The notes under the pieces are model-generated. The model made no database searches, was not told the origin of the DNA, and saw nothing but the letters and a program-made list of their open reading frames with translations. From positions 430,469 through 494,468 of the forward strand of contig CAWCWS010000004.1 of assembly GCA_963799325.1 (NCBI GenBank): DNA of 64,000 nucleotides, given 5' to 3'. The position numbers were made by a program, and so were the translations under genes. Source of the stretch: an uncultured Alphaproteobacteria bacterium (GTDB lineage: Bacteria; Pseudomonadota; Alphaproteobacteria; Rhizobiales; Rhizobiaceae). This document shows, one piece after another, positions 15,456 to 42,520 of this stretch. Numbering within the stretch: the stretch's first letter is position 1; each line of letters starts with the position of its first letter.

Positions 15456-17886
15456 CTAACTCCGCACCAGACTCATGGCCGGATCGTAGGGAACATCGTC
15501 GAGAACTTTCGCGCTGACGGTTGTGCCCAGTAGATCCACGTCGAGTGCGGTATCAGCCGCAGAGCAGTCCGGATTCACAAAGCCCATCGCCAGGTTCAAT
15601 CCGGTTCTATGGCCCCAGCTTGCTGATGTGACCGTGCCGACTATCTTGCCGTCTTTTAGGATCGAATCCCCCGGATGGGGGCTGGCATGGTCGGCATCGA
15701 GCGCCAGCATGACGAACAATTGTTTCGGGGAGGCCGCCCGCCGTTCGACCAGAGCAGCCGCGCCGGTATAATCGTTTCCCTCGCGCACGAAGCGGGCGAG
15801 ACCGGACTCGTAGGGGTCGAACTCGGTGAGAAGGTCGGCCTTCCAGTGCCGGAAACCTTTTTCGATCCGCATGGATTCCGTTGCCAAGGCACCGAACGGC
15901 ACCATGCCGAAGGGTTGACCCGCCGCCCATAACGTATCGAAAGCGAGCCGCAGCTGGGCATTGGGAATATGGAGTTCCCATGCCAGTTCACCGGAAAACG
16001 AGACCGCCATCGCCATCGCCTCTGCGGTACCGATGGTAACGGGTTTGACCGATAGCCACGGGAACGCGGCTTTCGACCAGTCCGTGCGCGGCGCAGCGGC
16101 ACTCAGCACGTCGCGGGATTTCGGACCGGCGACGACGAGGATCGTGTGGGTGTTGGTCAGGCTTTCGATGCGAATGCGACCCGTCGTCGGGAAGATGGTC
16201 GCTCAGGTGGTCCATGTCATGAAACTCGGCGGCGGCAGCCGAGCCGAACCAGACGGTGCCCTCGGAGACATTGGCGAGCGTTGCTTCGGATTTCACCATG
16301 CCCTGTTCGTTGAGCAGATAGGTCAGCCCCACGCGACCGGCCTTGCGGGGCACACGGGAGCAGACCACTTTTTGCAGCCAGTCCTGCACGGCTTCGGACG
16401 ACGCGCCGTGGATAGCGAAGCGGTTGAAGCCGGACACTTCCATGATGCCGACACGGTTCTGCACCGCGTCCACCTCGGCGGCGACGACAGCGTGGGTCTC
16501 GTTGAAGCGGAAGGACAGGGTTTCGGTGAAGTCCGGCGACGGCTTGAAATACTGCGCCCTCTCCCACCCATTCACCGTGCCCCAATGGGCACCCAGTTCC
16601 GTCAGGCGGTCATAGAGCGGCGTCGTCTTGGCGGGCCGGCCTGCCGGACGGTGCTCGTGGGGCATGTGGAAGCGGAACTCGTTCTGATAGTCCTCGATCG
16701 ACTTCAACGCCGTGTATTCGACATTCGCATATTGCGTGAAACGGCGCGGGTCGAGCGACCAGGTATCGTAGCAGGCTTCACCGTGGGCGATGATCTGGGC
16801 CAGCAACCAGCCATGTCCGCCGCCTTCGCCAAGACCGGCGCGCAAGCCGGTGATGCAGTAGGCGTTGCGCTTGCCCGGAATGCGCCCGACCAGCGGCAGA
16901 CCGTCCGGCGTGTAGGTGATCGGGCCGTTGACGACCGAATGGATGCCCGCTTCCGCCAGACATGGCAGCAGCGTCATCGCCCCTTCCATCACGTCCGTCA
17001 CCCGGTCGAGATCGTCCGGGCAGAGCGCATTGGTGAAATTCGGGTCGATGCCGTCCAGCCCCCATGTCTTGCAGTCCTGCTCGTAGAACCCGATCAGCAG
17101 ACCCTTCTTCTCCTGACGCTGGTAGAAATCGTATTTCGGGCAGCGGATCAGCGGCACGCGGGTGTCGAGCGCCTCGATCTGCGGGATGGCATCGGTGAGC
17201 ATGTATTGATGCTCCATCGAGGCCACGGGTAATTGATGCCCCATCATCGCAGCGATTTCATTGCAGCGGTAACCGGCTGCATTGACAATCTTGTTGGCGT
17301 GGATGTCGCCATTCGTCGTGTGGACGATCCAGCTGTCATCCGCCTGCTGCGTCAATCCGGTCACCTCGGTCTGGCGATAGACTTCCGCCCCCGCCTTGCG
17401 CGCGCGACGGGCCAGTGCCTGACAGAGTTGGGCCGGATCGATATCCCCGTCCAGCGGATCCCACAAAGCACCCAATACAGCCTCGCCGTTCAAAAGCGGG
17501 TGGCGGCGAGCGCATTCGGTGGCGTCGATCAACTCGAAATCGACGCCCATGCCCCTGGCCAGTGACATGAAGTGGTTGTAGCCGTCGAGATGGTCCTGCG
17601 TATGGGCAAGGCGCAACCCGCCCGTGCCGTGGTGGTAGTTGATCGGATAGTCGGGGTCGTCCGCCAGTTCCTTGTAGAGCGCGATGGAATGGGATTTCAG
17701 GCCCACCATCGTCTGGTTGCCGCCGAAATTGGTGACCTGCGCGGCGGAATGCCAAGTGGTGCCGGATGTCAGTTCGTCACGCTCGATGAGCACGCAATCG
17801 GTGATGCCTTCCTGGGTGAGATGGTAGAGAAGCGAGCATCCACCGATACCACCGCCGATGACCGCGACGTCCGTTTGTGTTTTCAT
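15456..17886 (-). pseudogene. FAD-dependent oxidoreductase with GcvT-like C-terminal domain (sarcosine/dimethylglycine dehydrogenase family), one frame switch
   Basis: The start is MKTQTDVAVIGGGIGGCSLLYHL (a DAO-type FAD fold), taken at M54 of ORF 15988..18045. The C-terminal aminomethyltransferase-fold part lies in ORF 15456..16109 (SFSGELAWELHIP, GKIVGTVTSASWGH). The pieces join near 16.18 kb (..LPDDG / RIRIESLTNTHTILVVAGPKSRDVL..). Confidence 0.8.
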
Positions 17887-19011
17887 CGCGCCGTTCCCCC
17901 ACACACCATGTCGTCTTTTGGGACGCCCATTCCCATAAATGCAAGTGGTAGATACATAAAAAGGGCGGATCTCTCGACCCGCCCGTTCGCGTTTGGTATG
18001 ACTTGGAGGTCTACAAGCGCCTGGTCGGTAATTTCCGACGTCCATGCACCTTGCGGCTCGGCCGTGATGACAGGCTCGTCGCCTGCCGACAGCAGCGTCT
18101 TCACGGTGCGCTGATAGTCGGCCTCGTCGAGCGCGCCGTTGGTACCGGCGGTCAGCTTGGCGATCTCGCCCATCATGCGCTTCTGGTGCTCTTCGGTCTG
18201 TGCGCCGGAGGCATCGTTTTCCAGCACGATCATGGCCGCTTCGTCGGTGTTCTCCTCGGCGTATTTCCAGCCTTTCATGGAGGCGCGAACGAACTTGACC
18301 ATCTTTTCCTTGAAGGCTTCGTCGGCCAGCTTGTCTTCCAGCACGTAGAGACCGTCTTCCAGCGTCGAGACACCCTGGTCCTCATACTTGAAGACCACCA
18401 GATCGTCTGGCGTCAGACCGGCGTCGATGACCTGCCAGTATTCGTTGTAGGTCATGGTGGAGATGCAATCGGCCTGCTTCTGCAAGCAGCGGATCGACGT
18501 TGAAGCCCTGTTTCAGCACTGTCACGCCGTCCTCGGAACCGTCCGTCGTGATGCCGAGCTCGCTCATCCAGGACAGGAACGGATATTCGTTGCCGAAGAA
18601 CCAGACGCCGAGTGTCTTGCCCTTGAAGTCGGCGGGGTCGGTGATACCGGTTTCCTTGCGGCAGGTCAGCATCATGCCGGAGGATTTGAACGGCTGCGCG
18701 ATGTTGACCATCGGCACGCCCTTTTCACGGGTGGCGAGCGCGGACGGCATCCAGTCGACGACCACGTCGGCACCGCCACCGGCGAGCACCTGTGCGGGCG
18801 CGATGTCCGGCCCGCCCGGCTTGATTTCCACGTCGAGACCTTCCTGTTCGTAGAAGCCCTTGTCCTTGGCCACGTAGTAGCCAGCGAACTGGGCCTGTGT
18901 GACCCATTTCAGCTGAAGCACGACCTTGTTGTCGTCGCTCTGCGCCCACGCGATGGCGGGCGCCGCCATCGTGATCGCCGCTGCTGCGGCCAATGCTGCA
19001 AGTCTGTTCAT
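17883..19011 (-). pseudogene. ABC transporter substrate-binding protein (NMT1/THI5-like, NitT/TauT family), frame switch near 18.48 kb; 3' end uncertain
   Basis: Signal peptide MNRLAALAAAAAITMAAPAIAWAQ, then LQLKWVTQAQFAGYYVAKDKGFYEQEGLDV. The sequence continues in ORF 17883..18485 (..KQADCISTMTYNEYWQV..). The last ~40 codons of that ORF run through a terminator hairpin, so the real stop is probably near 18.0 kb. Confidence 0.75.
17956..17985 (-). terminator. probable rho-independent terminator downstream of the ABC binding-protein gene
   Basis: On the minus strand this reads GGGCGGGTCGAGAGATCCGCCC followed by TTTTTAT. It sits in a locally AT-rich stretch. Confidence 0.5.
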
Positions 19012-19025
19012 GCGATTCTCCTGTT

Positions 19026-19902
19026 TCAGCTCCGTCTTACCGACGGATGCCAGAATGTGACCGTGCGTTCGATGAGCGCAATGGTTCCGTAAAAGGTGGA
19101 GCCTGCCAAAGCCGCCACCGCGATCTGGGCCCAGACCATGTCGATATTCATGCGCCCGACCTCGGTGGAGATGCGGAAGCCCATGCCGACGATGGGTGTG
19201 CCGAAAAACTCGGCCACGATCGCACCGATGAGCGCGAGTGTCGAATTGATCTTGAGTGCATTGAAGATGAAAGGAGCCGCTGCTGGCAAGCGCAACTTTA
19301 GAAGCGTCTGCCACCAGCTTGCCGCATAGGTCGCCATCAGGTCGCGGCTCATGGTGTCGGACGCCGACAGGCCCTGCACCGTGTTCACCAGCATGGGGAA
19401 GAAGGTCATCACCACGACGACGGCGGCTTTCGACTGCCAGTCGAAGCCGAACCACATGACCATGATGGGCGCTATGCCCACCACCGGAAGTGCCGAGACA
19501 AAGTTGCCGAGCGGCATGAGGCCGTTCTTCAGGAACGGAGAGCGGTCGACGGCGAGCGCCACGAGAAAACCCGGAACCGCAGCCCAGAATGTAGCCGGCA
19601 AACACGGCCTTGAAGGTTTGAAGGAAATCGGCGCGTAGAATGTCGGTGGAGTTGGTGATGCGCTCCCACACCATGCTGGGGGGCGGCAGCAGGACGGTCG
19701 GTACGTTCAGCCCGCGCACGAGCAATTCCCAGATAACGAACAACGTGATGCCGAAGATGAGTGGCACGGCGAGGCCGATGGCGCGGGTGAGCACCATGTT
19801 GTGGCCGGTGTCGATGGAGACGAGCCGCTGGTTCAGCCACCAGGCGAACAGCCAGAACGCAAACGCCATCCAGACGAGTATCGAGATGCCTGCAACGGTC
19901 AT
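19026..19902 (-). pseudogene. ABC transporter permease (NitT/TauT family), one frame switch near 19.59 kb
   Basis: MTVAGISILVWMAFAFWLFAWW... joins ORF 19026..19601 (..LPVVGIAPIMVMWFGFDWQSKAAVV..FFPMLVNT..), which carries the BPD-type permease EAA-loop region. The start overlaps the upstream permease stop (ATGA). Confidence 0.8.
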
Positions 19903-20790
19903 GTGGCCTGTTCCCCCATCCGCGCCAGCACCATGCGATGGCCGACACCGACCAAGCGCGACCAGAGTCGCCGCCATCGCAGCGGCCACGACGAGCGCGG
20001 ACCATATCTGGATCGTCTGTCCGTAATAGGAACCAGCCAGCAAACGCGCGCCGAGACCCGCGACCGCGCCTGTCGGCATTTCACCCAACGATGGCGCCGA
20101 CCAGCGAAATGGCGACGGCGATCTTGAGCGACGTGAACAAGAACGGCAATGAAGCCGGCAATCGCAATTTCCAAAAGGTTTGCGCGCGCGAAGCGGAATA
20201 GGTGTGCATGAGGTCCAGTTGCGCCGCATCCGGCGCGCGCAGGCCCGCCACCATGCCGACGACGACCGGGAAGAACGACAGGTAGGTGGAGATCAGCGCC
20301 TTCGGCAGCAGCCCGGAAATACCCGCCGCATTCAGCACCACGATAATCATCGGCGCGATGGCCAGAATGGGAATCGTCTGGCTGGTGATGACCCATGGCA
20401 TGACGGACTTGTCCATCGCCCGGTTGTGGACGATGCCCACCGCCAGCGCGACACGCCGAGCGCCGTGCCGATGAGAAAGCCGAGCAGGGTCGCGGATAGC
20501 GTGATCCATGCGTGGTAGATCAGGCTTCGCTTCGAGAACGGCCGCCCGGCCAGCGCCATCGCGCCGGTGGTTTTCCAGATTTCCACCGCCACCTGATGGG
20601 GCGCGGGCAGAACGGGCCGGTCCTGCCGCATGGTCTCGGGGATTATTTCGGAGAATGACGGTGGCGGTGTGCCTGCCCGCTCGGCCTGATCGCGGATGAA
20701 CGGGGTGTTCAGGAAAACGGCGGCGACGTACCATATGACGAAGAGGACTGCGACGACGGTAAGGACGGGGATGGTTTTGGAGGTGTTCAT
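19899..20790 (-). pseudogene. ABC transporter permease (NitT/TauT family), about three frame switches
   Basis: MNTSKTIPVLTVVAVLFVIWYVAAVF... continues through pieces of ORFs 20081..20971, 18382..20229 and 19899..20396 (..TSQTIPILAIAPMIIVVLNAAGISG..SFFPVVVGMV..LKIAVAISLVGAIVGEMPTG..). Confidence 0.75.
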
Positions 20791-21086
20791 GCCGGACCGG
20801 GCTCCTTGTCCACGGGAGGCCAGCTGCGGGCCGTATGGACGACGAACAGTTAGTGACGGTTTGGACTGTCCGTCCGATAGACCAACCGGTAACTGGGGTG
20901 AGGGAACAGTTCGCGAGTATTCGGTAACAATCCGGGAACGCCCATCTGCGGAAATTCCAGCAGACGTTCACACGAGGAGGAAATCAAGGCGTCAATCCTG
21001 TTTGCACCCTTCGGACTTTCCTGCTGGTTGTGATCGAAGATCATGCGGCGCTGACGCTGGGCGTGTCGCGTCCAGTTCAAACGCAT
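20787..21086 (-). pseudogene. RelE/ParE-family toxin interrupted by an in-frame TAA (20850-20852)
   Basis: MRLNWTRHAQRQRRMIFDH.QQESPKGANRIDALISSSCERLLEFPQMGVPGLLPNTRELFPHPSYRLVYRTD... has the ParE pattern. After the TAA the same frame continues LFVVHTARSWPPVDKEPGPA and ends in a TGA overlapping the permease ATG. Confidence 0.65.
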
Positions 21087-21093
21087 CGTTGCT

Positions 21094-21358
21094 TCAGTCC
21101 AAAGCCACGGCCGCCGCCCGCCGTGCGACAAACTCGCTTTCCACGTCCTCGTGGGAGATAACGCGACCCCGTTCAATGTCGGTTTCGGCGCGTTTCAGAT
21201 GGTCCTGCAGGAACGCCCGGTAGTCCGGATCGTGTTCGCTCACGAACCTGGAAACAGCCGTGCTGGCCAGTTCCGCGTCAGTCAAGACTCACGGCTTCGG
21301 CTGCTCGACGAAGGTCCTGCGCAGTCTGCCGGTCGAGCGTGATGGTCAGGGTGTCCAT
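21094..21358 (-). CDS. ribbon-helix-helix type antitoxin (partner of ParE-like gene), one frame switch near 21.285 kb
   Basis: MDTLTITLDRQTAQDLRRAAEA.. (an RHH-like N-terminus at the tail of ORF 21278..21793) joins ORF 21094..21285 (..AELASTAVSRFVSEHD...AETDIERGRVISHEDVESEF..). The stop lies 8 nt upstream of the toxin ATG. Confidence 0.55.
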
Positions 21359-21387: not shown

Positions 21388-22193
21388 CTAGCGGAACGTC
21401 GTGCTCAAACAAGGGTCTATCCGTCCAGCCCATGCCCTGCGCGCAAGCCCGTCGCGCACCCGTGCGGCGACAGCGAGAAAATCGGCACTTTCGCGGATGT
21501 TCAGCGGGCGTTCCTTCGGCAGCGGGCTTTCGATAATTTCGTGAATGCGGCCCGGGCGGGGAGACATGACGACGATGCGGGTCGACAGATAGACGGCTTC
21601 GGGGATTGAGTGGGTGACGAAGCAGATCGTCTTGCCGGTCCGCGCCCACAATTCCAGCAGCGCCTCGTTCAACGTGTCGCGGACGATCTCGTCCAGCGCG
21701 CCAAACGGTTCGTCCATCAGCAGCAGGTCGGCGTCGAAGGCCAGCGCGCGGGCGATGGAGGCACGTTGCTGCATGCCACCGGACAGTTGCCACGGATATT
21801 TCTTGGCGAAGCCGGACAGTTCGACCAGTTCCAGCACTCGGCGACGCGCTTCTGGCGGTCCGCGCCCGGAGTGCCCATGATTTCGAGCGGCAGAGCGATG
21901 TTCTTCTCGATGGTCCGCCACGGTTGGAGCGAGGCGGCCTGAAAGACGTAGCCGTAGGCCCGTGCCTTACGGGCGTCGGCGGGCGTCATGCCGTTGACGG
22001 TGATCGCGCCGCCGGTGGGCTGTTCGAGGTCGGCGATCACGCGCAGAAACGTCGTCTTGCCGCAGCCGGACGGGCCGATGAACGAGACGAACTCACCGGG
22101 CGCGATATCCAGCGATACGTCCTTGAGCGCGTGGACAGGGGCGTCAGCGGTTTGGAAGGTGAGGGAGAGGTATTGGGCGGAGACTACGGTCAT
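21388..22193 (-). pseudogene. ABC transporter ATP-binding protein (NitT/TauT family), frame switch near 21.85 kb
   Basis: Walker A GPSGCGKTT, Q-loop YVFQ, signature LSGGMQQRASIARAL and Walker B LLLMDEPFGALD, spread over ORFs 21717..22193 and 21388..21921. Confidence 0.85.
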
Positions 22194-22873
22194 GGGTTTA
22201 AACCGAGAATGGCTTTTATAGCAGGATTGCCCTTTATCATTTGACCCTGCTCTTCAGCCCTTCGAAATGCTTGGCGCAGTGCCGCATGGTTACGTCGCAT
22301 CTCGCTTTTGTTAAGCCTTGGATTCTTACCATCTAAGATTTCTAACCCTTGCGTGAGCATAGCCTGAATGTAGCTGGCTCGTTCTAGCAACATTACTATC
22401 CTGGTTCGATCAGTTTCAGATGTGACAATCTGATAGCGGTTTTTTTCAACGCGAACGTACCTCGAAGATCGAAAATAGAAATGGCCATCGTCATGATGAG
22501 AGACGTCTATTCGGCCATGAATAAGATGATTTCTGGCCATCCAAATTTCTTCTATCGAGAAAGCGAGGCCGTTTAAATCAATTCGGTCATCCGCGTCTCC
22601 GCAGGCTCTAAGTGGGCTATGTTCAAGGTAGGCTAACACTAAAAAATCAATTTTTCCAATTTCCCCTTGCTTACGGCTAATCATTTTCATAGGGAAGTTT
22701 GGTGTCCGCTTTGTTAGAGGGCTAGCGAGTTTTGAATAGGCAAATATAAATCGGTCTATTACGAACTCTAGTCCAGAAATGTAATTGCAAAAATATCCTA
22801 GTGATGCATACAGATTCATTGAAGTCTCATCTAGATCTAAAAAATTCCTTGGAATATTTATTGAGACTGACAA
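22190..22873 (-). CDS. hypothetical protein, AT-rich orphan ORF with HEPN-like RNxxxHG motif
   Basis: Intact 227-aa ORF in a segment that is visibly AT-rich compared with its flanks. I recognise no family. It contains ..EEIWMARNHLIHGRID.. (R114-x4-H119). It fills the whole hydantoinase-to-ATPase junction, and its TGA overlaps the ATPase ATG. Confidence 0.6.
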   Translation of the reverse strand: MSVSINIPRNFLDLDETSMNLYASLGYFCNYISGLEFVIDRFIFAYSKLASPLTKRTPNFPMKMISRKQGEIGKIDFLVLAYLEHSPLRACGDADDRIDLNGLAFSIEEIWMARNHLIHGRIDVSHHDDGHFYFRSSRYVRVEKNRYQIVTSETDRTRIVMLLERASYIQAMLTQGLEILDGKNPRLNKSEMRRNHAALRQAFRRAEEQGQMIKGNPAIKAILGLNP

Positions 22874-22916
22874 AATAATTGCTTTCCTTTAATTTCTCAC
22901 TGTCAGATTAAATTGC

Positions 22917-24374
<1,458 letters not shown>

Positions 24375-24378
<4 letters not shown>

Positions 24379-24731
24379 GGGGATTCTCCGGTCTGCCCTG
24401 CGAGTGCATAGAGGTTGAGATGGAAGGCGAGCGCAAGATCGACTTTGGCCATATCGGCGGTAGTCAACACGCCTATTTCACGGCCCAATTTTGCCGTTGG
24501 AATGGTCTGTATCTTCTCGCATTGAATATGGGGCTGCTTTTCAACCCATTGGTTTCCGTTGGATCAACGGCCACGCGAATTTCCAGTTCGTGCGAAACAT
24601 CCGACGTGATGAGGCAAATCGATATGCTTCGAACAGAGGGAGCGTGTGATCGTTTTGCACGACCAGCTCGGGCGTGGCTTCTTGTAGTCGCCACTCAACG
24701 CAATAAGGACGAGTGATCCTCGTCTTACCAT
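24375..24731 (-). pseudogene. PemK/MazF-family toxin, three -1 frame switches
   Basis: Stitching three frames gives MVRRGSLVLIALSGDYKKPRP / ELVVQNDHTLPLFEAY / SISICLITSDVSHELEIRVAVDPTETNGLKSSP / HIQCEKIQTIPTAKLGREIGVLTTADMAKVDLALAFHLNL... This matches the alphaproteobacterial PemK pattern GD..KPRPALV.Q.D...TS......V.P...NGL..S.V..DK..T....K.G. The ATG overlaps the stop of the upstream small ORF, and the TGA overlaps the hydantoinase ATG. Confidence 0.6.
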
Positions 24732-24904
24732 TCGTAGTCCGGTTCATCCCGCATGGTTTCCTCAAACAGCGCGTCGATGAACTCCAGCGTGCCGTCACGC
24801 TGGTCGGCTTCCGCGATTACGTGGACTTCGCACTGCAAGTCCTCATCGTTGATGATCGGGCGGCGCGCAACGACGGTTTCGAATTGGCGGTTGTTGGGGT
24901 CCAT
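24725..24904 (-). CDS. small acidic protein (59 aa), candidate antitoxin of the MazF-like gene; N-terminus uncertain
   Basis: ATG 24902-24904 to TAA 24725-24727 gives MDPNNRQFETVVARRPIINDEDLQCEVHVIAEADQRDGTLEFIDALFEETMRDEPDYEW. It falls below the 60-aa track cut-off. The acidic ..E.DYEW tail resembles MazE-type antitoxin C-termini. The frame is open for a further ~27 codons upstream. Confidence 0.4.
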   Translation of the reverse strand: MDPNNRQFETVVARRPIINDEDLQCEVHVIAEADQRDGTLEFIDALFEETMRDEPDYEW

Positions 24905-24933
24905 TATCTCAATTCCCTCGAAAAGTCGATCAC

Positions 24934-25400
24934 CTAAAGGACTGAATTTGGGTGCGTGCAGATGATTAAATCGTCTAGGTCGGCGTTAACGGACGAACTT
25001 CCTGAGCAGCTCTTATGCCGTTTATTGTCGCCTTTGCGAAGAGCGAGCAATTTGAAGATCAACTTCATTGAAGGAGTGACGTTCAGGGTTTTTAAGAAAA
25101 CTCGAATAAAATTGTCTGTCAAATTGGCTACGTAGAGTCAATAAACTCTCGTCAAATTAATCTCTCCATCCGTGGTTAGTTCATGCGAAACAGCGGCGGC
25201 GCCGAAAAGATCTTTGACGGTCGTTGGCCAGAACTTCCGTCAACAAATACCGTTTATCATCCCAAATCCCCCTGCAACCATTTTGTTCGCTGCAAGATGT
25301 GGGTCCAAATCCGAGAACACTGACTTCTTATGCAGTTCAATAAGGTTTTGAGTAATTGTGGCCACTTGGCTTTTGTGCGAAGATGATTTAGCAAATGACC
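24934..25400 (-). pseudogene. decayed AT-rich ORF of unknown function (one frame open for ~155 codons except two TGA codons)
   Basis: The minus-strand frame reads ..VATITQNLIELHKKSVFSDLDPHLAANKMVAGGFGMINGIC*RKFWPTTVKDLFGAAAVSHELTTDGEINLTRVY*LYVANLTDNFIRVFLKTLNVTPSMKLIFKLLALRKGDNK...ICTHPNSVL. This is far fewer stops than expected for AT-rich DNA. Confidence 0.3.
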
Positions 25401-25402
25401 GA

Positions 25403-26665
25403 TCACGACCCCACAATCTCCGCCGCTTCCACCACCGCGTGGAACAGCACTTCCGCTCCCGCCGTGCTCCATTCCTTGCTGATCTCCTCCGCCTCGTTGT
25501 GGCTCAGCCCATCCACGCACGGGCACATGATCATGGCGGTGGGGGCGACCTTGTTGATCCAGCAGGCGTCGTGGCCAGCGCCGGAGACGATGTCCTTGTG
25601 GCTGTAGCCGAGACGTTCGGCGGCTTCACGGATGCTCTGCACCAGCGTCTTGTCGAATTCGGGCGGGTCGAACTGGCCGACGATCTCAAAGCTTAATTCG
25701 ACGCCCAAAGCCTCGCACAACGCAGGTGCTTCCGCCTCGAACCGCGCGACCATTGCGTTCAGCCGGTCCAACTCGTGGGAGCGGAAGTCGATGGTGAACA
25801 CGACCTTGCCGGGGATGATGTTGCGGCTGTTGGGATAGACGTCGATATGGCCGATGGCACCCACGGCGTTCGGCGCGTTGTCCATCGCTATCGTGTGAAC
25901 CAGCTCGGTGATCTGCGCCAGACCGCGGCCGGCGTTCTTGCGCATGGGCATGGGGGTGGAGCCGGTGTGGCTTTCCTTGCCCGTCACCGTGCATTCGATC
26001 CAGCGCAGCCCCTGCCCGTGGGTGACGACGCCGATATCGACGCCCTCGGCTTCCAGGATCGGCCCCTGTTCGATGTGGAGTTCGAGGAAGGCGTGCATCT
26101 TGCGGTCGCCGACCACCTCGTCGCCCTTCCAGCCGATGCGTTCCAGCTCGTCGCCGAAGGTAAGCCCCTTGGCATCTGTCTTGGCGTAGGCCTCTTCCTG
26201 CGGGATGACGCCTGCGAAAACGCCGGATGCCATCATGGCAGGGGCGTAGCGGGTGCCTTCCTCGTTGGTCCAGTTGGTCACGACGATGGGATGCTTCGTC
26301 CTGATGTCGAGGTCGTTCAAGGTGCGGACCACTTCCAGACCTGCCAGCACGCCCAGCACGCCGTCATAGCGCCCGCCGGTGGGCTGTGTGTCGAGGTGGG
26401 AACCGACATAGACCGGCAGTGCGTCCGGTTCGGTGCCCTCACGGCGCATGAACATGGTGCCCATCTGGTCGAGGCCCATCGTCAGGCCAGCGTCCTCGCA
26501 CCATGTCTGGAACAGCGCGCGACCTTTGGCGTCCTCGTCCGTCACCGTTTGCCGGTTGGAGCCGCCCGCGATGCCGGGGCCGATTTCGGCGATGGCGTGG
26601 ATGCTGTCCCACAGCCTGTCGCCATTAATGCGAAGGTTCTCACCCGGAGCTGCGCTCGATGCCAT
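25403..26665 (-). CDS. Zn-dependent amidohydrolase, M20/AmaB family (N-carbamoyl-amino-acid hydrolase / beta-ureidopropionase / allantoate amidohydrolase type)
   Basis: Intact 420-aa ORF with GSHLDTQPTGGRYDGVLGVLAGLE, NEEGTRY and ESHTGSTPM. It lies next to the dihydropyrimidinase, the usual hydantoin/pyrimidine catabolic pairing. Confidence 0.85.
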   Translation of the reverse strand: MASSAAPGENLRINGDRLWDSIHAIAEIGPGIAGGSNRQTVTDEDAKGRALFQTWCEDAGLTMGLDQMGTMFMRREGTEPDALPVYVGSHLDTQPTGGRYDGVLGVLAGLEVVRTLNDLDIRTKHPIVVTNWTNEEGTRYAPAMMASGVFAGVIPQEEAYAKTDAKGLTFGDELERIGWKGDEVVGDRKMHAFLELHIEQGPILEAEGVDIGVVTHGQGLRWIECTVTGKESHTGSTPMPMRKNAGRGLAQITELVHTIAMDNAPNAVGAIGHIDVYPNSRNIIPGKVVFTIDFRSHELDRLNAMVARFEAEAPALCEALGVELSFEIVGQFDPPEFDKTLVQSIREAAERLGYSHKDIVSGAGHDACWINKVAPTAMIMCPCVDGLSHNEAEEISKEWSTAGAEVLFHAVVEAAEIVGS

Positions 26666-26735: not shown

Positions 26736-27014
26736 TCAGCTCTCCTCGCCGAACCGGCTGGCGACGAGCTCTTCCAGTGCCGTCATGGCTTCGACGGCCT
26801 GCGGGCCGGTGGCGCTGACTTTCACGGAACAGCCCTTGGAAGCCGCCAGCATCATCAGCCCCATGATGGATGTGCCGCCGACACTGTATTCGCCCTTTTC
26901 CACCGTCACATCGGCGTCAAAGGTCTCGCAGGTTTTCACGAAACGGGCGGATGCACGGGCGTGCAGACCCCGTTCGTTGCAGATTTCCAGCGATTTAGGG
27001 CCGATCGTGGTCAT
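26736..27014 (-). CDS. ptsH: HPr-family phosphocarrier protein (NPr-like)
   Basis: Internal ATG of ORF 26736..27218. The 92-aa product has the His region ICNERGLHARASARF and the Ser region GGTSIMGLMML. Confidence 0.85.
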   Translation of the reverse strand: MTTIGPKSLEICNERGLHARASARFVKTCETFDADVTVEKGEYSVGGTSIMGLMMLAASKGCSVKVSATGPQAVEAMTALEELVASRFGEES

Positions 27015-27021
27015 CGTGGGC

Positions 27022-27423
27022 TCATGCTCCCGCCAAGACCTTGCTGGCGATGTTGATGTAGCGGCGGCCGGATTCCGTCGCCTTTTCCAGCGCGTCGTCC
27101 ATATCGTCGCCGGTTCGCACGCTGGCCAGTTTGATGAGCATGGGCAGATTGACGCCCGCCACAACCTCGATGAGCCCCGGCTCCATGATCGAGATGGCGA
27201 GATTGGAGGGCGTGCCACCGAACATGTCGGTGAGAATGACCGCGCCCTTGCCGGTATTGACCCGCGCCACGGCGTTCAGAATATCCGTGCGGCGCTGCTC
27301 CATGTCGTCGTCTGGGCCGATAGAGACCGTCTCCAGCGCTTCCTGGGGGCCAACAACATGTTCCAGCGCCAGCTCGAATTCGCGTGCCAGGGCACCGTGG
27401 GTGACGATAACAAGACCGATCAT
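27022..27423 (-). CDS. PTS EIIA component, mannose family
   Basis: 133 aa, MIGLVIVTHGALAREF... (active-site His in VTHG) and ..LTDMFGGTPSN. Confidence 0.85.
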   Translation of the reverse strand: MIGLVIVTHGALAREFELALEHVVGPQEALETVSIGPDDDMEQRRTDILNAVARVNTGKGAVILTDMFGGTPSNLAISIMEPGLIEVVAGVNLPMLIKLASVRTGDDMDDALEKATESGRRYINIASKVLAGA

Positions 27424-27522
27424 GGGCAGGCGCGGGATCTGCTCCCGCGGTTCTCATACGCGCTGTTCCGGCGGCCATCTTTGCACGCAAGCCACGGCTT
27501 GCAAGCGAAAAATTGAATCAGC

Positions 27523-27969
27523 CTAAAGAACACGCAGCGTCTGCATAAGGATGTGGCAGGCATGATGGAGGTTGGCAGCAGGAACATTGCACAATGGCAA
27601 TGCGATGGCGGAGGCTGCGCCGGTGCCCGGGCAGGTCGTTCGACCCTCATCGGGCAGTCGTTCCAAATCGGTATCGGGCACAAGATCGACAACGAGATCG
27701 AGCTTGCAACGGGCGAGGTATGGCACAGTGGTAATCCCGGCAAAACGCAGTTCCCGCTTGCCGGCAATCGAGAGCACTGCGCTGGCGATCAGGCCATCGC
27801 CGCATGGAGTCAGGATGACTTGGTCATCCGCGACCCACCGGGCGAACCAACCGAACGACTGCGCACGGTAGATACACTCCTCCACCAGCAAGCTCTTGCC
27901 CGCACCGCTGGCACCGCGCACCAGCACGCCCTGTCGCCCGATCACGAATGCCGATGCGTGAAGTGTCAC
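27523..27969 (-). CDS. hprK: HPr kinase/phosphorylase, short alphaproteobacterial form
   Basis: 148 aa with P-loop GASGAGKSLL. It lacks the N-terminal domain of firmicute HprK. It occupies the conserved position between chvG and the EIIA/HPr genes. Confidence 0.8.
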   Translation of the reverse strand: MTLHASAFVIGRQGVLVRGASGAGKSLLVEECIYRAQSFGWFARWVADDQVILTPCGDGLIASAVLSIAGKRELRFAGITTVPYLARCKLDLVVDLVPDTDLERLPDEGRTTCPGTGAASAIALPLCNVPAANLHHACHILMQTLRVL

Positions 27970-27976
27970 CCGGCCC

Positions 27977-29821
27977 TCACTTTCGCGCGTTCAGCCCTTG
28001 CCCCAATAGAGGCAAGGTCAACGTGAAACGCGCACCGCCGCCTTCCGCATTGTCGGCGACGATCGTGCCTGCATGGGCCTCGACGATCTGTTTGGTTATC
28101 GACAGGCCGAGCCCCGAATTCTGGCCGAATGACTCCTCGCCGGGGCGGTCGGTGTAGAACCGTTCGAAGATGCGGACGGTGTTCTCCGGCGGGATGCCCG
28201 GTCCGTTATCCTCAACCGTCACGATGACGTCATCGTCGTCCTGCGACAGGGCAATTTCGATGCTCCCTCCCTTTACAGGCACAAAGGACCGGGCGTTCTC
28301 GATCAGGTTCGTCAAAACCTGACCCAACCGCCCTTCATGGCCCTCCACGTGATACGTCCGGCGGGATTTCGTCTTGCGCCACTTTTCCGGTCCCTGCCCG
28401 TCGATCGTGAGCGCCACATCCGGCATTTCGGCGACGGTGTGGGATGCCATGCTGGCGTAGGTCGCATGGATGGAGGCAGCGAGAGCGGCCACATCGACGA
28501 TACCGGCATCTTCCCGCGCCAGTTCGGCATCGAGGCGGGAGGCGTCGGAAATGTCCGAAATCAGACGGTCGAGACGGCGCACGTCATGTTCGATGATAGC
28601 CAGCAGCTTTTCGCGCTGCTCGGGTTTCTTGGCCAATGGCAGAGTTTCGACGGCACTGCGCAGCGATGTCAGCGGGTTCTTCAGTTCATGGGATACGTCG
28701 GCTGCAAAACTCTCGATCGCTTCGATACGCGCATACAGCGCCTGCGTCATGGCACGAAGGCTTCCCGACAGGTGGCCGATCTCGTCACCCCGATGGGTAA
28801 AATCCGGTATCTGCTCCCGTGCCTTGGTGCCGAGCCGCACACGCTCGGCCGCCGCCGACAGCCGGTGCAAGGGTTTGGCTATGGTGGAGGCCAGCAGCAC
28901 GGACAGAACAAGCGTGACGGCCAATGCGATCAGGAACGTACGCAGAATGTTCATCCGTTCCTTCTCGATGATCGTATCAATGGCTCCAGCTTCGGTCGAA
29001 AGAACCAGCACGCCCAGCACGGCCCGGAACCGCTGGATGGGCACGGCCACGGAGACGATTGTGGCCCCGTTCGCGGTGCGCCGCGTTGCCGTTCCGGGCG
29101 TCCCGGTAAGAGCTGTCACAACCTCGCGGTAGGCCGTTCCGTTGCCGTCGGCGTTGTCGGAATAAAGCGGCAGGTCGGACTGCCAGAACCAGTTGCGGAA
29201 CGCGAGCCACTGGCTTTCCAGCCATTTGCTCCAGTCGGTGTCGCCGGGTTCCCGGACCCGCGGCAGGTCGTAGCGATAGATCTGGCCAGACAGGTACAGC
29301 CGGTCGGAATCGAGAATGATGAGACCGTCGCGGTCATAGATCCGCGCCCGGGTGCGGGTGGGGGAAATCAACCGTCGCAGGATGGGGGCGACCTGTTCCG
29401 GGTTGACGGGAAAGTCGAAATTTTCCGTCTCGCTTTCCATCGGAAAGGCGCTCTCGCCAGCCTGCAATTCCAGCAGCCGATCGGGGTCGATCGACAGGGC
29501 ATCGGTTTCCACGGTGGCATTGGCAGCAATGGCAGCGGAAATGATCTCGCCCTGAATGAGCAGACTTTCCTCCCGCGCCTCGATGAGGGAATCGCGGAAC
29601 TGGTGCTGGAAGATCATCGCCGCCAGCAGCACGAGCAAGGCTGCTGCATTGAGAACGACGATACGCTGGGTCAGGCTGGTGAAGATGTAGCGACTGAACA
29701 GACGGGCGGCCTTTCGCCTGCGCTGACGCAACCACGGGGTTCTGCCGAGCCTGCTCGAACGTCGACGCAACGGGGTCGCTATCGCTGTCTCCGCTTCGCT
29801 GGCGTTCGTCGTGTCGGTCAA
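27977..29821 (-). CDS. chvG: sensor histidine kinase ChvG/ExoS/BvrS
   Basis: 614 aa with two TM segments flanking a periplasmic domain. It has a HAMP domain, the H-box FAADVSHELKNPLTSLRSA and the ATPase boxes NLIENARSF, DNGPGIP and GLGLSI. It lies immediately downstream of chvI. Confidence 0.9.
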   Translation of the reverse strand: MTDTTNASEAETAIATPLRRRSSRLGRTPWLRQRRRKAARLFSRYIFTSLTQRIVVLNAAALLVLLAAMIFQHQFRDSLIEAREESLLIQGEIISAAIAANATVETDALSIDPDRLLELQAGESAFPMESETENFDFPVNPEQVAPILRRLISPTRTRARIYDRDGLIILDSDRLYLSGQIYRYDLPRVREPGDTDWSKWLESQWLAFRNWFWQSDLPLYSDNADGNGTAYREVVTALTGTPGTATRRTANGATIVSVAVPIQRFRAVLGVLVLSTEAGAIDTIIEKERMNILRTFLIALAVTLVLSVLLASTIAKPLHRLSAAAERVRLGTKAREQIPDFTHRGDEIGHLSGSLRAMTQALYARIEAIESFAADVSHELKNPLTSLRSAVETLPLAKKPEQREKLLAIIEHDVRRLDRLISDISDASRLDAELAREDAGIVDVAALAASIHATYASMASHTVAEMPDVALTIDGQGPEKWRKTKSRRTYHVEGHEGRLGQVLTNLIENARSFVPVKGGSIEIALSQDDDDVIVTVEDNGPGIPPENTVRIFERFYTDRPGEESFGQNSGLGLSITKQIVEAHAGTIVADNAEGGGARFTLTLPLLGQGLNARK

Positions 29822-37881: not shown

Positions 37882-39263
37882 ATTCGCCAAAGCCTGCAGA
37901 CACTGCGGGCCCACGAGCCGAATGCCCTTGTGAAAACTCTTCAGTTCGTATTTCTCGTTGGGCGAATGGATGGCGTCGTCGGCCAGCGCGAAGCCGATCA
38001 GCAGTGAGTCCATCCCCAACTGACGCTTGAAATTGCCGACGATGGGAATCGACCCGCCACCGGCAATGATGGCGGCTTCCTTGCCCCATTCGTCGGTCAG
38101 CGCCTGCGCCGCCTTCTTCAATTCCGGCAGGTTCCAGTCCAGCTGGGTCGCCGGGTTGCGGCCGTGGGGGATGTAGCTGACGCGGCAATCTTCCGGCAGA
38201 CGGTCCTCGACATGCTTGCGGAAGGCGGCGGCCACCTTGTCGGGATCCTGCTGGCCGACGAGGCGGAACGACACTTTCGCCGAGGCCTTGTGCCGGAATG
38301 ACGGTCTTGAACCCCTCCCCTGTATAACCCCCGTCGATGCCGTTCACTTCCGCTGTGGGGCGGGACCACGTCTGTTCCAGCACGGTGCGGTTGGCTTCGC
38401 CGGAGGGCAGCGACAGGCCCACCGCGCCCAGAAAGTCGCCCGCCGAAAAGCCGAGCGCATCCCACGATTGGCGAACGTCTTCGGGCACGTCCTCCACACC
38501 ATCGTAGAAGCCGTCCAGCGTGACCGAGCCGTCGTCGGCGTGCAGGTCGGCCAGAATGCGGGTCAGAACGTGGATCGGGTTGCGCGCCGCGCCGCCATAA
38601 TAGCCGGAATGGAGATCGCGGGATGCGGCGTGGATCGTCACCTCGTCGGAGGCCATGCCGCGCAGGGCCGTGGTGATGGCAGGCGTGTTGGCGTCCCACA
38701 TATTGGTGTCGCAAACGAGAGCGATATCGGCGCGCAACTCGTCCTTGGCCGGCTTCCAGAAACGGCTCCAGCGAGGGCGAGCCGGACTCCTCCTCCCCCT
38801 CGAACAGGATAGTCACACGGCAGGGCAGCGCGCCGGTCGCCTCCTTCCACCCACGGCAGGCTTCCACGAACGTGAGCAACTGCCCCTTGTCGTCGGACGA
38901 TCCGCGGGCATAAACGCGCTTGGCCCCGTTCACTTCCTTGATGGTCGGCTCGAACGGGTCGGTGTCCCACAATGCGATCGGGTCCACCGGCTGCACGTCG
39001 TAATGGCCGTAGAACAGAACATGCGGAGCGCCTTCAGGCCCGTCATGGTGCGCCACGACCATCGGATGGCCGGGCGTGTCGCGCAGGGATGCGTCGAAGC
39101 CGAGCGCGTTCAACTGGTCCACCAGCGTTTGCGCCGCCTTGCGAACCTCGCCCTTGTAGGCCGGGTCGGTGGAGATGCTCTGCATCCGCAGCAGCGCGAA
39201 CAGGCGTTCTAGCGACCCGTCGAGATTGGCGTCTATCGTGTCGAGAACTGTGTCGAGGCTCAT
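37878..39263 (-). pseudogene. M20/M25/M40 family metallopeptidase (ArgE/DapE/dipeptidase-like), three +1 frame switches
   Basis: The pieces are MSLDTVLDTIDANLDGSLERLFALLRMQSISTDP..FYGHYDVQP..ARGSSDDKGQ..ILFEGEEESGS (ORF 38118..39587), then ..DTNMWDANTPAITTALRG..LHSGYYGG.. (37772..38737), then ..GGGSIPIV..IHSPNEKY.. (37606..38274). After a last switch the C-terminus reads ..GIRSWARSVCRLWRI. Confidence 0.8.
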
Positions 39264-39607: not shown

Positions 39608-42520
39608 ATGAAAAAGGGCGACCATCTCTTTCTCGTCGACGGGTCGGCCTATATTTTCCGCGCCTATCATGCCCTGCCCCCGCTCACCCGCAAGTCGGAC
39701 GGGCTGCCCATCGGCGCGGTTTCGGGCTTTTGCAACATGTTGTGGAAGCTGATGCAGGAGGCACGCGATACCGCCGCCGGGGTCGTGCCGACCCATTTCG
39801 CGGTGATCTTCGACCATTCCTCCACCACGTTCCGCAACGACATCTACCCCGATTACAAGGCCAACCGCTCCGAGCCACCGGACGACCTGCGCCCGCAATT
39901 CGCGCTCATCCGGCAGGCGACGCGGGCGTTCGACGTGCCGTGCATCGAGACGGAAGGGTTCGAGGCCGACGACATCATCGCCACCTATGCCCGCCTCGCG
40001 ACCGCGGCGGGTGCGGACACGACCATCGTGTCGTCCGACAAGGACCTGATGCAGCTGATCGACGATCATGTCGGCATGTATGACACGATGAAGGACGTGC
40101 GGGTGGACGCGAACGCGCGTCTTCGCCAAGTTCGGAGTCGAGCCGGAAAAGATGATCGACATGCAGGCGCTGGCGGGGGATTCCACCGACAACATTCCCG
40201 GCGTCCCGGGCATCGGCCCGAAAACTGCGGCGCAGTTGCTGGACGAATACGGCGATCTGGAAACGCTGCTGGAACGGGCAGGCGAGATCAAGCAGAACAA
40301 GCGGCGCGAGAACCTGATCGAACACGCGGAGCTGGCGCGCATTTCCAAGCAGCTTGTGACCTTGCGCACCGACGTGCCGCTGGAGATGGATCTCGACGCG
40401 CTGGCGCTTTCGCCCCCCAACGGGCCGCGGCTGATTGCATTCCTGAAGGGTCTGGAACTCAATTCCGTCACGCGGCGGGTGGCTGCGGACACGGAAACGG
40501 ACGCTTCTGCCATTGAGCCGGACGATGTGAGTGTCGATGGCTACGAGGAACGCGGACCGGACCTGGATGCTTCAGACGCCGTGGACGATCCGCTGGCGAG
40601 TGACGGCGGCATGACGACGCCGCAGCATCTGGCCGAAAAGCGCAAGCAGGACGCGACTACTACCGCCATCGATACCAGCGCTTACGAGACCGTGCGCGAT
40701 GTCGAGACATTGAAACGCTGGATCGCGGAAGCCCACGACAAGGCGGTCGTCGCGGTCGATACGGAAACCACCTCGCTGGACGCCATGCAGGCCGATCTCG
40801 TCGGTATATCGCTCGCAACCGCACCGGGCCGTGCCTGCTACATTCCGCTCGGCCATACGGTCGGCGAGGGAGACATGTTCGACGGTGTGGGTCTGGCGGA
40901 AGGGCAGATACCGATGGCGGACGCGCTGGCGTTGTTGAAGCCACTGCTGGAAGCGCCGGGCGTGTTGAAGATCGCGCAAAACCTGAAATACGACTGGCTG
41001 GTTCTGTCCCGATACGACATCCATATCGCGCCTTTCGACGATACGATGCTGTTGTCCTACGTGCTGGATGCCGGTCGCTCGAAACACGGTATGGACGCCC
41101 TCTCGCAGGACATTCTCGGCCACACGCCGATCCCGTTCAAGGACGTCGCAGGCTCCGGCAAGAAGCTGGTGACGTTCGACAGGGTGGAGATCGACAAGGC
41201 GTCGACCTATGCCGCCGAGGACGCAGACGTGACGTTGCGCCTGTGGCAGGTGCTGAAAGCGCGGTTGACGGCAGAAGGCATGAACACCGTCTATGAACGC
41301 CTCGAACGGCCTTTGGTCGACGTCATCTGCCGCATGGAAGCGCGGGGCATTTCGGTGGACCGGCAAATCCTGTCGCGGCTGTCGGGCGAGATGGCGCAAA
41401 AGGCGGCGGGTTTGGAGGACGAGGTTTATGAACTCGTCGGCCACAAGTTCAACATCGGCTCGCCGCGCCAGCTGGGCGAAATCCTGTTCGACCAGATGGG
41501 CCTGCCCGGGGGCAAGAAGACCAAGTCCGGCCAGTATTCCACCACCGCGCAGGTGCTGGAAGATTTAGCCGCCGAAGGCCACGAACTGCCCCGGCGCATC
41601 GTCGACTGGCGTCAGCTTTCCAAGCTGAAATCCACCTATACCGACGCCCTGCCGACCTACATTCACCCGCAGACGAAACGCGTTCACACGTCCTATGCGA
41701 TGGCGTCCACCTCCACGGGGCGGCTGTCGTCGAGCGAACCGAACCTGCAGAACATTCCGGTCCGAACGGAGGCGGGACGCAAGATACGTACGGCCTTCAT
41801 CGCCGAACCGGGCAACAAGCTGCTGTCGGCGGACTACAGCCAGATCGAATTGCGGGTGCTCGCCCACGTTGCCGACATTCCGCAACTGAAACAGGCATTC
41901 GCCGACGGCATCGACATCCACGCGATGACGGCGAGCGAGATGTTCGGCGTGCCGGTGGAAGGCATGGACCCGATGGTGCGGCGGCAGGCCAAGGCGATCA
42001 ATTTCGGCATCATCTACGGCATTTCCGCCTTCGGGCTGGCCAACAATCTCGGCATCGGTCGAGCCGAGGCGGGTGACTACATCAAGATGTATTTCGAGCG
42101 CTTCCCGGGCATCCGCGACTATATGGACACGACGAAAAAATTCGCCCGCGAGCATGGCTATGTGGAAACGATTTTCGGTCAGACGCGCCCATTATCCCGA
42201 AATCCGGTCCGCCAACCAGTCCATGCGCGCCTTCAATGAGCGGGCCGCGATCAATGCGCCCATCCAGGGCAGTGCCGCCGACATCATCCGCCGGGCAATG
42301 GTGCGGATGGAAGCGGCCTTGGCCGACGCGAAACTATCGGCGCAGATGCTCTTGCAGGTGCATGACGAACTGATTTTCGAACTGCCGGAGAACGAGGTGG
42401 AGGCCACCATTCCGGTCGTGACCCGTATCATGGAAAACGCCGCGATGCCCGCGCTCGACCTGTCGGTGCCGTTGCAGGTGGACGCGCCGGGCGGCGGACA
42501 ACTGGGACGAGGCGCATTGA
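39608..42520 (+). pseudogene. polA: DNA polymerase I, three +1 frame switches as assembled
   Basis: The 5'-3' exonuclease has MKKGDHLFLVDGSAYIFRAYHA and the 3'-5' exonuclease has VAVDTETTSLD. Polymerase motifs are DYSQIELRVLAH, RRQAKAINFGIIYG and QVHDELIFE. Pieces start at 39563, 40152 and 42073 (mod 3 = 2,0,1). The final piece ends ..VDARAADNWDEAH-TGA at 42518-42520. Switches lie near 40.11, 42.19 and 42.49 kb. Confidence 0.92.

Follow-up and report, generated by a model that had tools for sequence, protein, structure and literature searches.

Why should a gene hold one fixed place across deeply diverged catabolic operons while its own sequence varies so widely from one operon to the next? 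This question is raised by a 64,000-nucleotide (nt) stretch of DNA, hereafter called the window (contig CAWCWS010000004.1 of assembly GCA_963799325.1, positions 430,469 to 494,468 of the forward strand), from an uncultured alphaproteobacterium of the Rhizobiaceae. In the window, an AT-rich open reading frame (ORF) at 22190–22873 on the minus strand, which we call gene X, fills the junction between the dihydropyrimidinase/hydantoinase gene, hydA, and the ATPase gene of an ATP-binding cassette (ABC) transporter. The explanation that we favour, with a probability of roughly 0.45, is that X encodes a divergent, partnerless ribonuclease (RNase) of the HEPN type, which occupies the slot directly 3′ of hydA, is co-transcribed with its neighbours, is often translationally coupled to them, and behaves in a conflict- or addiction-like manner.

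Gene X, its family and the HEPN signature

Gene X is supported by the ORF list, by 33 homologous cluster representatives and by an AlphaFold2 model, and it encodes a HEPN-like protein of 227 residues beginning at a TTG codon. The automatic gene call in a public collection (P0001) begins at the internal M19. Residues 2–18 (SVSINIPRNFLDLDETS) match the N-termini of the homologues in the alignment, and TTG is therefore the better model of the start. Direct reading places a 43-nt spacer (22874–22916, minus strand) between hydA, whose true C-terminus ...TGIPASGV and stop codon end at 22917, and the start of X; the spacer contains a purine-rich, Shine-Dalgarno-like AAAGGAAAG at 22882–22890, 8 nt upstream of the TTG. 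At its other end, the TGA stop codon of X (22190–22192) shares bases with the ATG of the ATPase gene (22191–22193) in the arrangement ATGA. The overall GC content of X is 0.42 against 0.62 for the window, and X is the stretch of lowest GC content in the whole window, running at 0.38–0.45 between flanks of 0.60–0.66. By codon position, GC1, GC2 and GC3 are 0.50, 0.37 and 0.38, compared with 0.64, 0.44 and 0.84 in the nearby M20 gene. A preliminary description of this DNA, made from the sequence alone, had reported an intact ORF of 227 residues, clearly AT-rich against GC-rich flanks, 43 nt after the hydantoinase stop codon, overlapping the ATPase start, without flanking repeats or an integrase, and belonging to no recognisable family. 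It was accurate in all these respects. The scan for repeats around X was empty, no promoter-like or terminator-like sites were found there, Rfam gave zero matches at X, and a search with the X protein alone matched no curated family in Pfam, PADLOC, NCBIfam or the PDB sequences.

The same description had called the gene an orphan, which turned out to be wrong. When 1.84 billion cluster representatives were searched exhaustively with HMMER, 33 of them matched at E ≤ 1e-3, including 18 at E ≤ 1e-10. A word-indexed protein search, which retrieves very few members of this family even with profiles, identified a single relative, a hypothetical protein from Shinella oryzae with 46% identity. Every named member is annotated as "hypothetical protein", and the family has no name. 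The closest pair that we found is 63% identical. The broad alignments contain no conserved stretch of 7–10 residues that could serve for locus searching, and the pattern scans for loci, including that of IMG/VR, rested on an alignment of the close subfamily.

Within this diversity two residues stand out. In an alignment of 35 sequences with a mean column identity of 24%, R114 and H119 are the sole invariant columns, and a second alignment with 36 sequences again left these two alone invariant. They belong to an Rx4H motif, RNHLIHG (residues 114–120, codons at 22514–22534 on the minus strand), which we regard as the putative active site. N115 follows the arginine in 30 of the 35 members, and G120 follows the histidine in 31. 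An acidic pair in predicted helix 1, E36 and D40 (codons E36-F-V-I-D40 at 22754–22768, minus strand), is kept in 31/33 and 32/33 aligned members, respectively, and the other conserved polar residues are K74, R89, D93 and N101. By our own estimates, a lone Rx4H would occur by chance in one protein of 227 residues with a probability of ~0.2, or ~0.04 when a polar residue is required after the arginine. The evidence for this motif comes from its conservation throughout the family and not from the single sequence. The preliminary description had proposed to collect homologues, and its reading depended on conservation of the motif among them. Both residues are present in every aligned member (35/35 and 36/36), and sequence conservation supports a motif that looks functional rather than accidental.

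Catalytic HEPN domains are characterised by Rx4-6H with a polar residue (N, D or H) after the arginine, located in a four-helix bundle at the point where helix 3 ends and the chain enters the loop to helix 4, and they usually carry an upstream acidic residue, typically within Ex3[KR] (PMC3710099). At the sequence level, X has both the Rx4-6H spacing and the polar residue. In the AlphaFold2 models of X (predicted local distance difference test score, pLDDT, 91.2; predicted template-modelling score, pTM, 0.81) and of the distant member P0026 (pLDDT 91.6), the motif closes a predicted helix, which spans residues 100–119 in X and 66–85 in P0026. As far as secondary structure can tell, this place at the C-terminus of a helix is the one that the motif has in HEPN domains. 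Both models continue after the motif with a three-strand β-meander followed by long helices; Csx1 has a β-hairpin at the corresponding place (PMC3710099). E36 and D40 form the pattern LExxxD and not the canonical Ex3[KR], and in the three closest sequences D40 is followed by R or K, or by E-R in P0003. The pair may represent the acidic residue that lies upstream in HEPN domains.

When the members were scanned one by one, the only recurrent weak matches were to HEPN families, each over the motif region. Two members matched PF18735 (RiboL-PSP-HEPN) with E-values of 6e-4 and 0.018, one matched PF18737 (E 0.2), and one matched the Csx1 model of PADLOC (7.8e-4). The X protein of the window itself had zero HEPN profile matches in Pfam and PADLOC, the consensus sequence of the family matched nothing in Pfam, single distant members gave only noise against the PDB sequences, and PHROGs gave nothing below 0.0086. 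We compared the models of X and P0026 with the PDB, and that of X also with BFVD, using Foldseek. The preliminary description had called the protein HEPN-type and had pointed to a Foldseek search for a four-helix HEPN core. The Rx4H with its polar residue proved to be family-wide, and the weak HEPN matches agree with the call; the four-helix core was not matched, and neither was a different fold assigned. Judged by its active-site signature, X is a probable member of the HEPN superfamily, unconfirmed at the level of the fold.

Comparison with known HEPN systems shows both likeness and distance. The proteins of the clade comprising PF18735 and Abi2/AbiD/AbiF are, like X, small and helical, with an RNxxxHG-type Rx4H where a helix ends, and the two weak matches to PF18735 lie exactly over the motif. 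AbiD and AbiF are single-gene HEPN abortive-infection (Abi) proteins without an antitoxin (PMC3710099). Unlike this clade, X scores below the family cutoff, has neither an L-PSP fusion nor ParB or restriction-modification neighbours, continues directly after the motif with the three-strand meander, and lies in a metabolic operon instead of a plasmid, phage or defence context. In the HEPN-MNT type II toxin-antitoxin system HepT/MntA, the toxin is likewise a small HEPN protein that works as a dimer, as proposed for X, and carries an Rx4H active site, but no MNT nucleotidyltransferase gene adjoins X in the 15 loci described below, where its neighbours are hydA, a cupin gene and the ABC ATPase gene. 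X resembles Csx1/Csm6 in the single weak Csx1 match of one member; it lacks a CARF domain and CRISPR surroundings.

The top match in the PDB for both models, not significant in either case, was a human COMMD chain (8f2r_A) with E-values of 0.2–0.45 and template-modelling (TM) scores of 0.16–0.19, and we do not claim a COMMD fold for X. The COMM domain is an obligate dimerisation module in which a helical N-domain is followed by a three-strand meander and a helix, the same order of elements as in X. The match may hint that the β-meander/helix part of X mediates dimerisation.

A variable gene in a fixed slot behind hydA

Our survey of genomic context covered 15 independent loci with a member of the X family, including those of S. 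oryzae (L001) and Pseudorhizobium endolithicum JC140 (L011) and the metagenomic loci L003, L004, L006, L010, L012, L013, L014, L015/16 and L017/18. X lies directly 3′ of hydA in 12 of the 15 (the window, L001, L003, L004, L006, L010–L015 and L017), separated from it by 0–43 nt or overlapping it stop to start, as in the TGATG of L010 and L014. It also overlaps the ATPase gene stop to start, as ATGA in the window and L013 and likewise in L006, L014, L015 and L017. Members sharing as little as 27–31% identity with the Shinella copy are among those in the 12 loci. L005 lacks its upstream end, but the same ATPase gene follows X, which is compatible with the hydA-X arrangement. The exceptions are L007, where X follows an adenosine-deaminase gene by 22 nt, and L019, where its surroundings, at a contig end, are unrelated. 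The preliminary description had stated that X has no partner gene, which the recurrent place behind hydA contradicts. It had also suggested looking for homologues in defence islands. No such context was found: the neighbours of X are catabolic and transport genes, and PADLOC gave no match for the X protein.

The usual gene order is a RutR-type TetR regulator (PF08362), an aminotransferase in some loci, an M20 amidohydrolase, hydA, X, a divergent cupin gene in some loci, the ABC ATPase, two permeases and an NMT1-type substrate-binding protein, with preT and preA close by in S. oryzae and P. endolithicum. Taken as a whole, this gene set serves the reductive catabolism and the uptake of pyrimidines and hydantoins. 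Since L010 retains hydA-X and has no transporter, X is linked to hydA rather than to the transporter. The divergent cupin was considered as a partner of X and set aside, being absent from the window, L006, L013, L014, L015 and L017 and, in L001, the single copy measured, host-like in its GC3.

The position of X is kept, and its sequence is not. Identity between loci is 24–59% for X, compared with 72–86% for the ATPase and 75–92% for hydA, and the divergence of X correlates weakly with that of the ATPase (r = 0.32). The GC3 of X is 0.31–0.56 in every locus, against 0.74–0.90 for its neighbours in GC-rich hosts; in lower-GC hosts the values for X and a neighbour are 0.35 and 0.54, and 0.31 and 0.40. 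Low GC is thus a trait of the X family in every host and not the mark of a recent arrival in this genome. The low GC3 might stem from selection that keeps a toxic protein poorly expressed, from repeated exchange in which lower-GC lineages supplied the alleles, or from the loss of GC-biased gene conversion in a segment too divergent to recombine. The slot itself changes its content. Shinella sp. PSBB067 (L002, NZ_CP069303.1) has flanks 93–96% identical to those of S. oryzae, and a GC-rich ORF of ~125 residues with a signal-peptide-like N-terminus (L002 5558–5935) replaces X and the cupin gene. Since a different ORF stands there between near-identical flanks, the junction of hydA and the ATPase gene is a variable cassette site.

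These data bear on the proposal of the preliminary description that X is a horizontally acquired single gene. In its sharpest form, X would be a foreign toxin or abortive-infection gene that was acquired recently and independently, and landed in this junction by chance. The contrast of 0.42 with 0.62 in GC content, the hypervariability of the family and the absence of X from a close relative of S. oryzae would all suit such an origin. However, the junction is occupied in 12 loci by members that fall as low as 27% identity, low GC3 is family-wide and not specific to one genome, and the surroundings of X hold no repeats, integrase or traces of mobile elements. Moreover, tblastn found no relatives of the X family in 72,556 plasmids or in 50,697 phages, and the pattern scan with the close subfamily found none in IMG/VR. 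We therefore consider a recent chance acquisition highly improbable.

The strict position in 12 of 15 loci and the translational coupling to hydA or the ATPase gene could be explained in another way, namely that X is a post-transcriptional factor specific to its operon, a HEPN-type protein that binds or cleaves its own polycistronic mRNA. Such a factor may let the transcripts of the enzyme genes be stabilised or translated independently of those of the transporter genes, in a logic resembling that of MtlR, and would be in keeping with the absence of an antitoxin. MtlR is a HEPN-family regulator and a constituent of a catabolic operon, the mannitol operon (PMC3710099). The parallel is limited in that MtlR often lacks Rx4-6H and is thought to be non-catalytic, whereas the motif of X is invariant and X is hypervariable and sporadic; neither the profile search against the PDB nor Foldseek matched X to MtlR structures. 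A regulator of conserved targets would also not be expected to diverge to 24–35% identity while its targets stay ~80% identical. Most hydA-ABC operons lack X: it is found in 0 of the 41 plasmid or chromid records that match the cluster and is absent from the sister Shinella operon. In L010, furthermore, X is retained after hydA although the transporter is missing. A role on the operon's own mRNA hence seems unlikely to us.

The exceptional locus L007 directs attention to metabolism, because adenosine deaminase, like HydA, is an enzyme of the amidohydrolase superfamily, here acting on nucleosides. X could accordingly be an accessory of pyrimidine, hydantoin or nucleoside catabolism, in which the arginine and histidine act on a small molecule and not as an RNase active site. 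The conserved polar residues beyond these two (E36, D40, K74, R89, D93 and N101) would suit such a protein, and no fold match ties X to HEPN. On the other hand, the sole database similarities of the family, weak as they are, are to HEPN RNase families, the presence of X is sporadic, and hypervariability together with a GC3 30–50 points below the flanks is unlike co-operonic enzymes. We judge a metabolic function to be distinctly unlikely.

Under the favoured explanation, a partnerless HEPN-type RNase in the hydA slot, X would be a small soluble protein that most likely belongs, as a divergent member, to the HEPN superfamily, working as a metal-independent endoribonuclease by means of R114 and H119. 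N115 and the acidic pair E36/D40 would assist these residues, and the protein would probably be a dimer. The gene would ride in the reductive pyrimidine/hydantoin catabolic operon as an optional passenger, in the slot directly 3′ of hydA, co-transcribed and often translationally coupled to the preceding or the following gene. Sporadic presence, evolution several-fold faster than that of the flanks and AT-biased codons would be in line with a conflict-type activity, be it as a toxin, in abortive infection or in addiction. The AT-biased codons and the TTG start would keep expression low. As there is no antitoxin partner, X would have to be controlled either through the expression of the operon as a whole or by activation, in the manner of the single-gene HEPN Abi proteins.

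Several observations weigh against this explanation. No antitoxin-like partner, MNT gene or defence neighbour of X is conserved, and the searches of plasmids, phages and IMG/VR described above found no relatives of X. The retention of one position in operons that have diverged deeply would be expected of an operon-specific function just as much as of a selfish passenger. Part of the invariance of the motif reflects ascertainment, since the searches detect homologues by the segments that they conserve. No member reaches a curated HEPN threshold, the best score being 20.2 bits (E 6e-4) against the cutoff of 28.4 bits for PF18735, and the family profile found zero PDB sequences at E ≤ 10. Finally, Foldseek found no HEPN or other structure with E < 0.08 or a TM score > 0.23.

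The window around the slot

The conserved upstream neighbour of X in the window, hydA (22917–24378, minus strand), was delimited by tblastn with Shinella hydA and carries single-base insertions at about 24157, 23900, 23772 and 23085. The ATPase gene on the other side of X (21388–22193, minus strand) has one deletion and one insertion, and the two permease genes and the gene of the NMT1-type substrate-binding protein (18015–20799, minus strand), found by tblastn and by a Pfam match to NMT1, are also frame-shifted. The first gene of the cluster encodes an M20-family amidohydrolase (25403–26665, minus strand; 71% identical to the Shinella orthologue, Peptidase_M20 at 3.8e-30), which is probably N-carbamoyl-β-alanine amidohydrolase, as suggested by its family and its place in the operon. 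Neither a RutR-type regulator nor preT/preA is present next to the cluster in the window. Just upstream of the cluster are an HPr-domain gene and a ChvG/ExoS-type sensor kinase gene (26736–29821, minus strand). These two genes, polA and the megablast matches, which include pckA, together with an identity to Sinorhizobium of ~74% at the DNA level, mark the window as chromosomal DNA of a member of the Hyphomicrobiales.

Disrupted frames are not confined to the operon. Compared with the Sinorhizobium meliloti proteins, an M20/M25/M40 hydrolase gene (37918–39248, minus strand) and polA (39608–42486, plus strand) are each spread over three reading frames, and in total we counted ~14 indels in ~11 kb of reference-checked coding DNA, or ~1.2 per kb. 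As polA carries two frameshifts, the disruptions in the window are probably artefacts of sequence quality in an error-prone assembly and not true pseudogenes. A local pseudogenisation of the operon that spared X, which analysis of the GC3 phase had brought up, was dropped because polA and the other M20 gene are split as well. The preliminary description had contrasted an undisrupted X with its disrupted neighbours. The disruptions are real in the sequence, but the indels occur window-wide, and because an ORF of 684 nt would stay intact at this rate with P ~0.4, the contrast carries no weight.

The same indel rate, in making the intactness of X uninformative, leaves room for the idea that X is a decaying or non-functional ORF that is open by chance. 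Set against this idea are the 33 homologous clusters, the conserved residues and a predicted fold that is confident and reproducible. By our own arithmetic, moreover, 227 open codons would arise by chance with a probability near 1e-6, with ~6% stop codons expected at 42% GC. The chance that X is a dead frame thus appears next to negligible. Elsewhere in the window, an oxidoreductase ORF with DAO, FAO_M and GCV_T domains (15988–18045, minus strand) ends in the middle of GCV_T (profile positions 1–128 of 255) and is adjoined by an ORF at 15456–16109 (minus strand). The truncated GCV_T at 15456–18045 is probably another frameshift.

Other junctions of the operon also contain selfish modules. Between the ABC ATPase gene and the first permease gene, the window has an ORF for a ParE-family toxin (20850–21176, minus strand; Pfam ParE_toxin, 9.5e-9). 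Upstream of it and overlapping it lies an ORF of 63 residues (21094–21285, minus strand), which has no Pfam match and is likely a ParD-type antitoxin. At the same junction, other loci have a GNAT gene (L003), a DUF559 endonuclease gene (L011, 2e-31) or an ORF for a membrane protein of 111 residues (Shinella). The junction between hydA and the M20 gene contains an intact MazE/PemK pair in L003. In the window, it contains a MazE-like ORF with a weak tblastn match to the MazE-like protein of L003 at 24737–24844 (E 6e-4). By eye, segments resembling PemK/MazF follow the MazE-like ORF over three frames (GDYKKPRP / ELVVQNDH...) within 24473–24904 (minus strand), and this region is an apparent MazE/PemK remnant. 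A second AT-rich patch with a GC content of 0.42–0.43 lies at 24900–25400, downstream of the 3′ end of the M20 gene and before the MazEF-like remnant; it holds short ORFs only and gave zero matches in Pfam, in Rfam and in blastn against plasmids.

Implications for the operon and the family

What is new at this locus is a HEPN-type signature in an unprecedented setting that is conserved, embedded in an operon and hypervariable; the family is undescribed in the libraries that we searched. A full-text literature search retrieved nothing relevant that joins HEPN with dihydropyrimidinase or hydantoinase. A bolder version of the favoured explanation, which we find very doubtful, would make X a new defence or addiction gene wired into a nucleobase-sensing operon. 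The RNase would be gated by the pyrimidine-responsive RutR-type repressor, so that an enzyme silent until then would be activated by nutrient shifts or by the breakdown of nucleic acids under phage attack. The junction 3′ of hydA would then be a long-lived hypervariable slot, exchangeable by recombination and kept polymorphic by conflict. In a variant of this version, X may target or home to the conserved 3′ end of hydA.

Should X prove to be an active HEPN RNase, a toxin-type enzyme without a partner would have a stable and translationally coupled place inside a catabolic operon of housekeeping style, a setting that would lie outside the reach of island-based pipelines for the discovery of defence and toxin-antitoxin systems. 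The family also presents an evolutionary puzzle: the position is kept and the flanks remain ~80% identical, while X itself is 24–59% identical with a GC3 30–50 points below that of its neighbours. Allele exchange, balancing selection, selection for poor codons and escape from GC-biased gene conversion are candidate explanations of this pattern, which bears on the fine-scale upkeep of GC content and on gene turnover in GC-rich alphaproteobacteria. With S. oryzae and P. endolithicum JC140 as cultured carriers of X, the question is directly testable.

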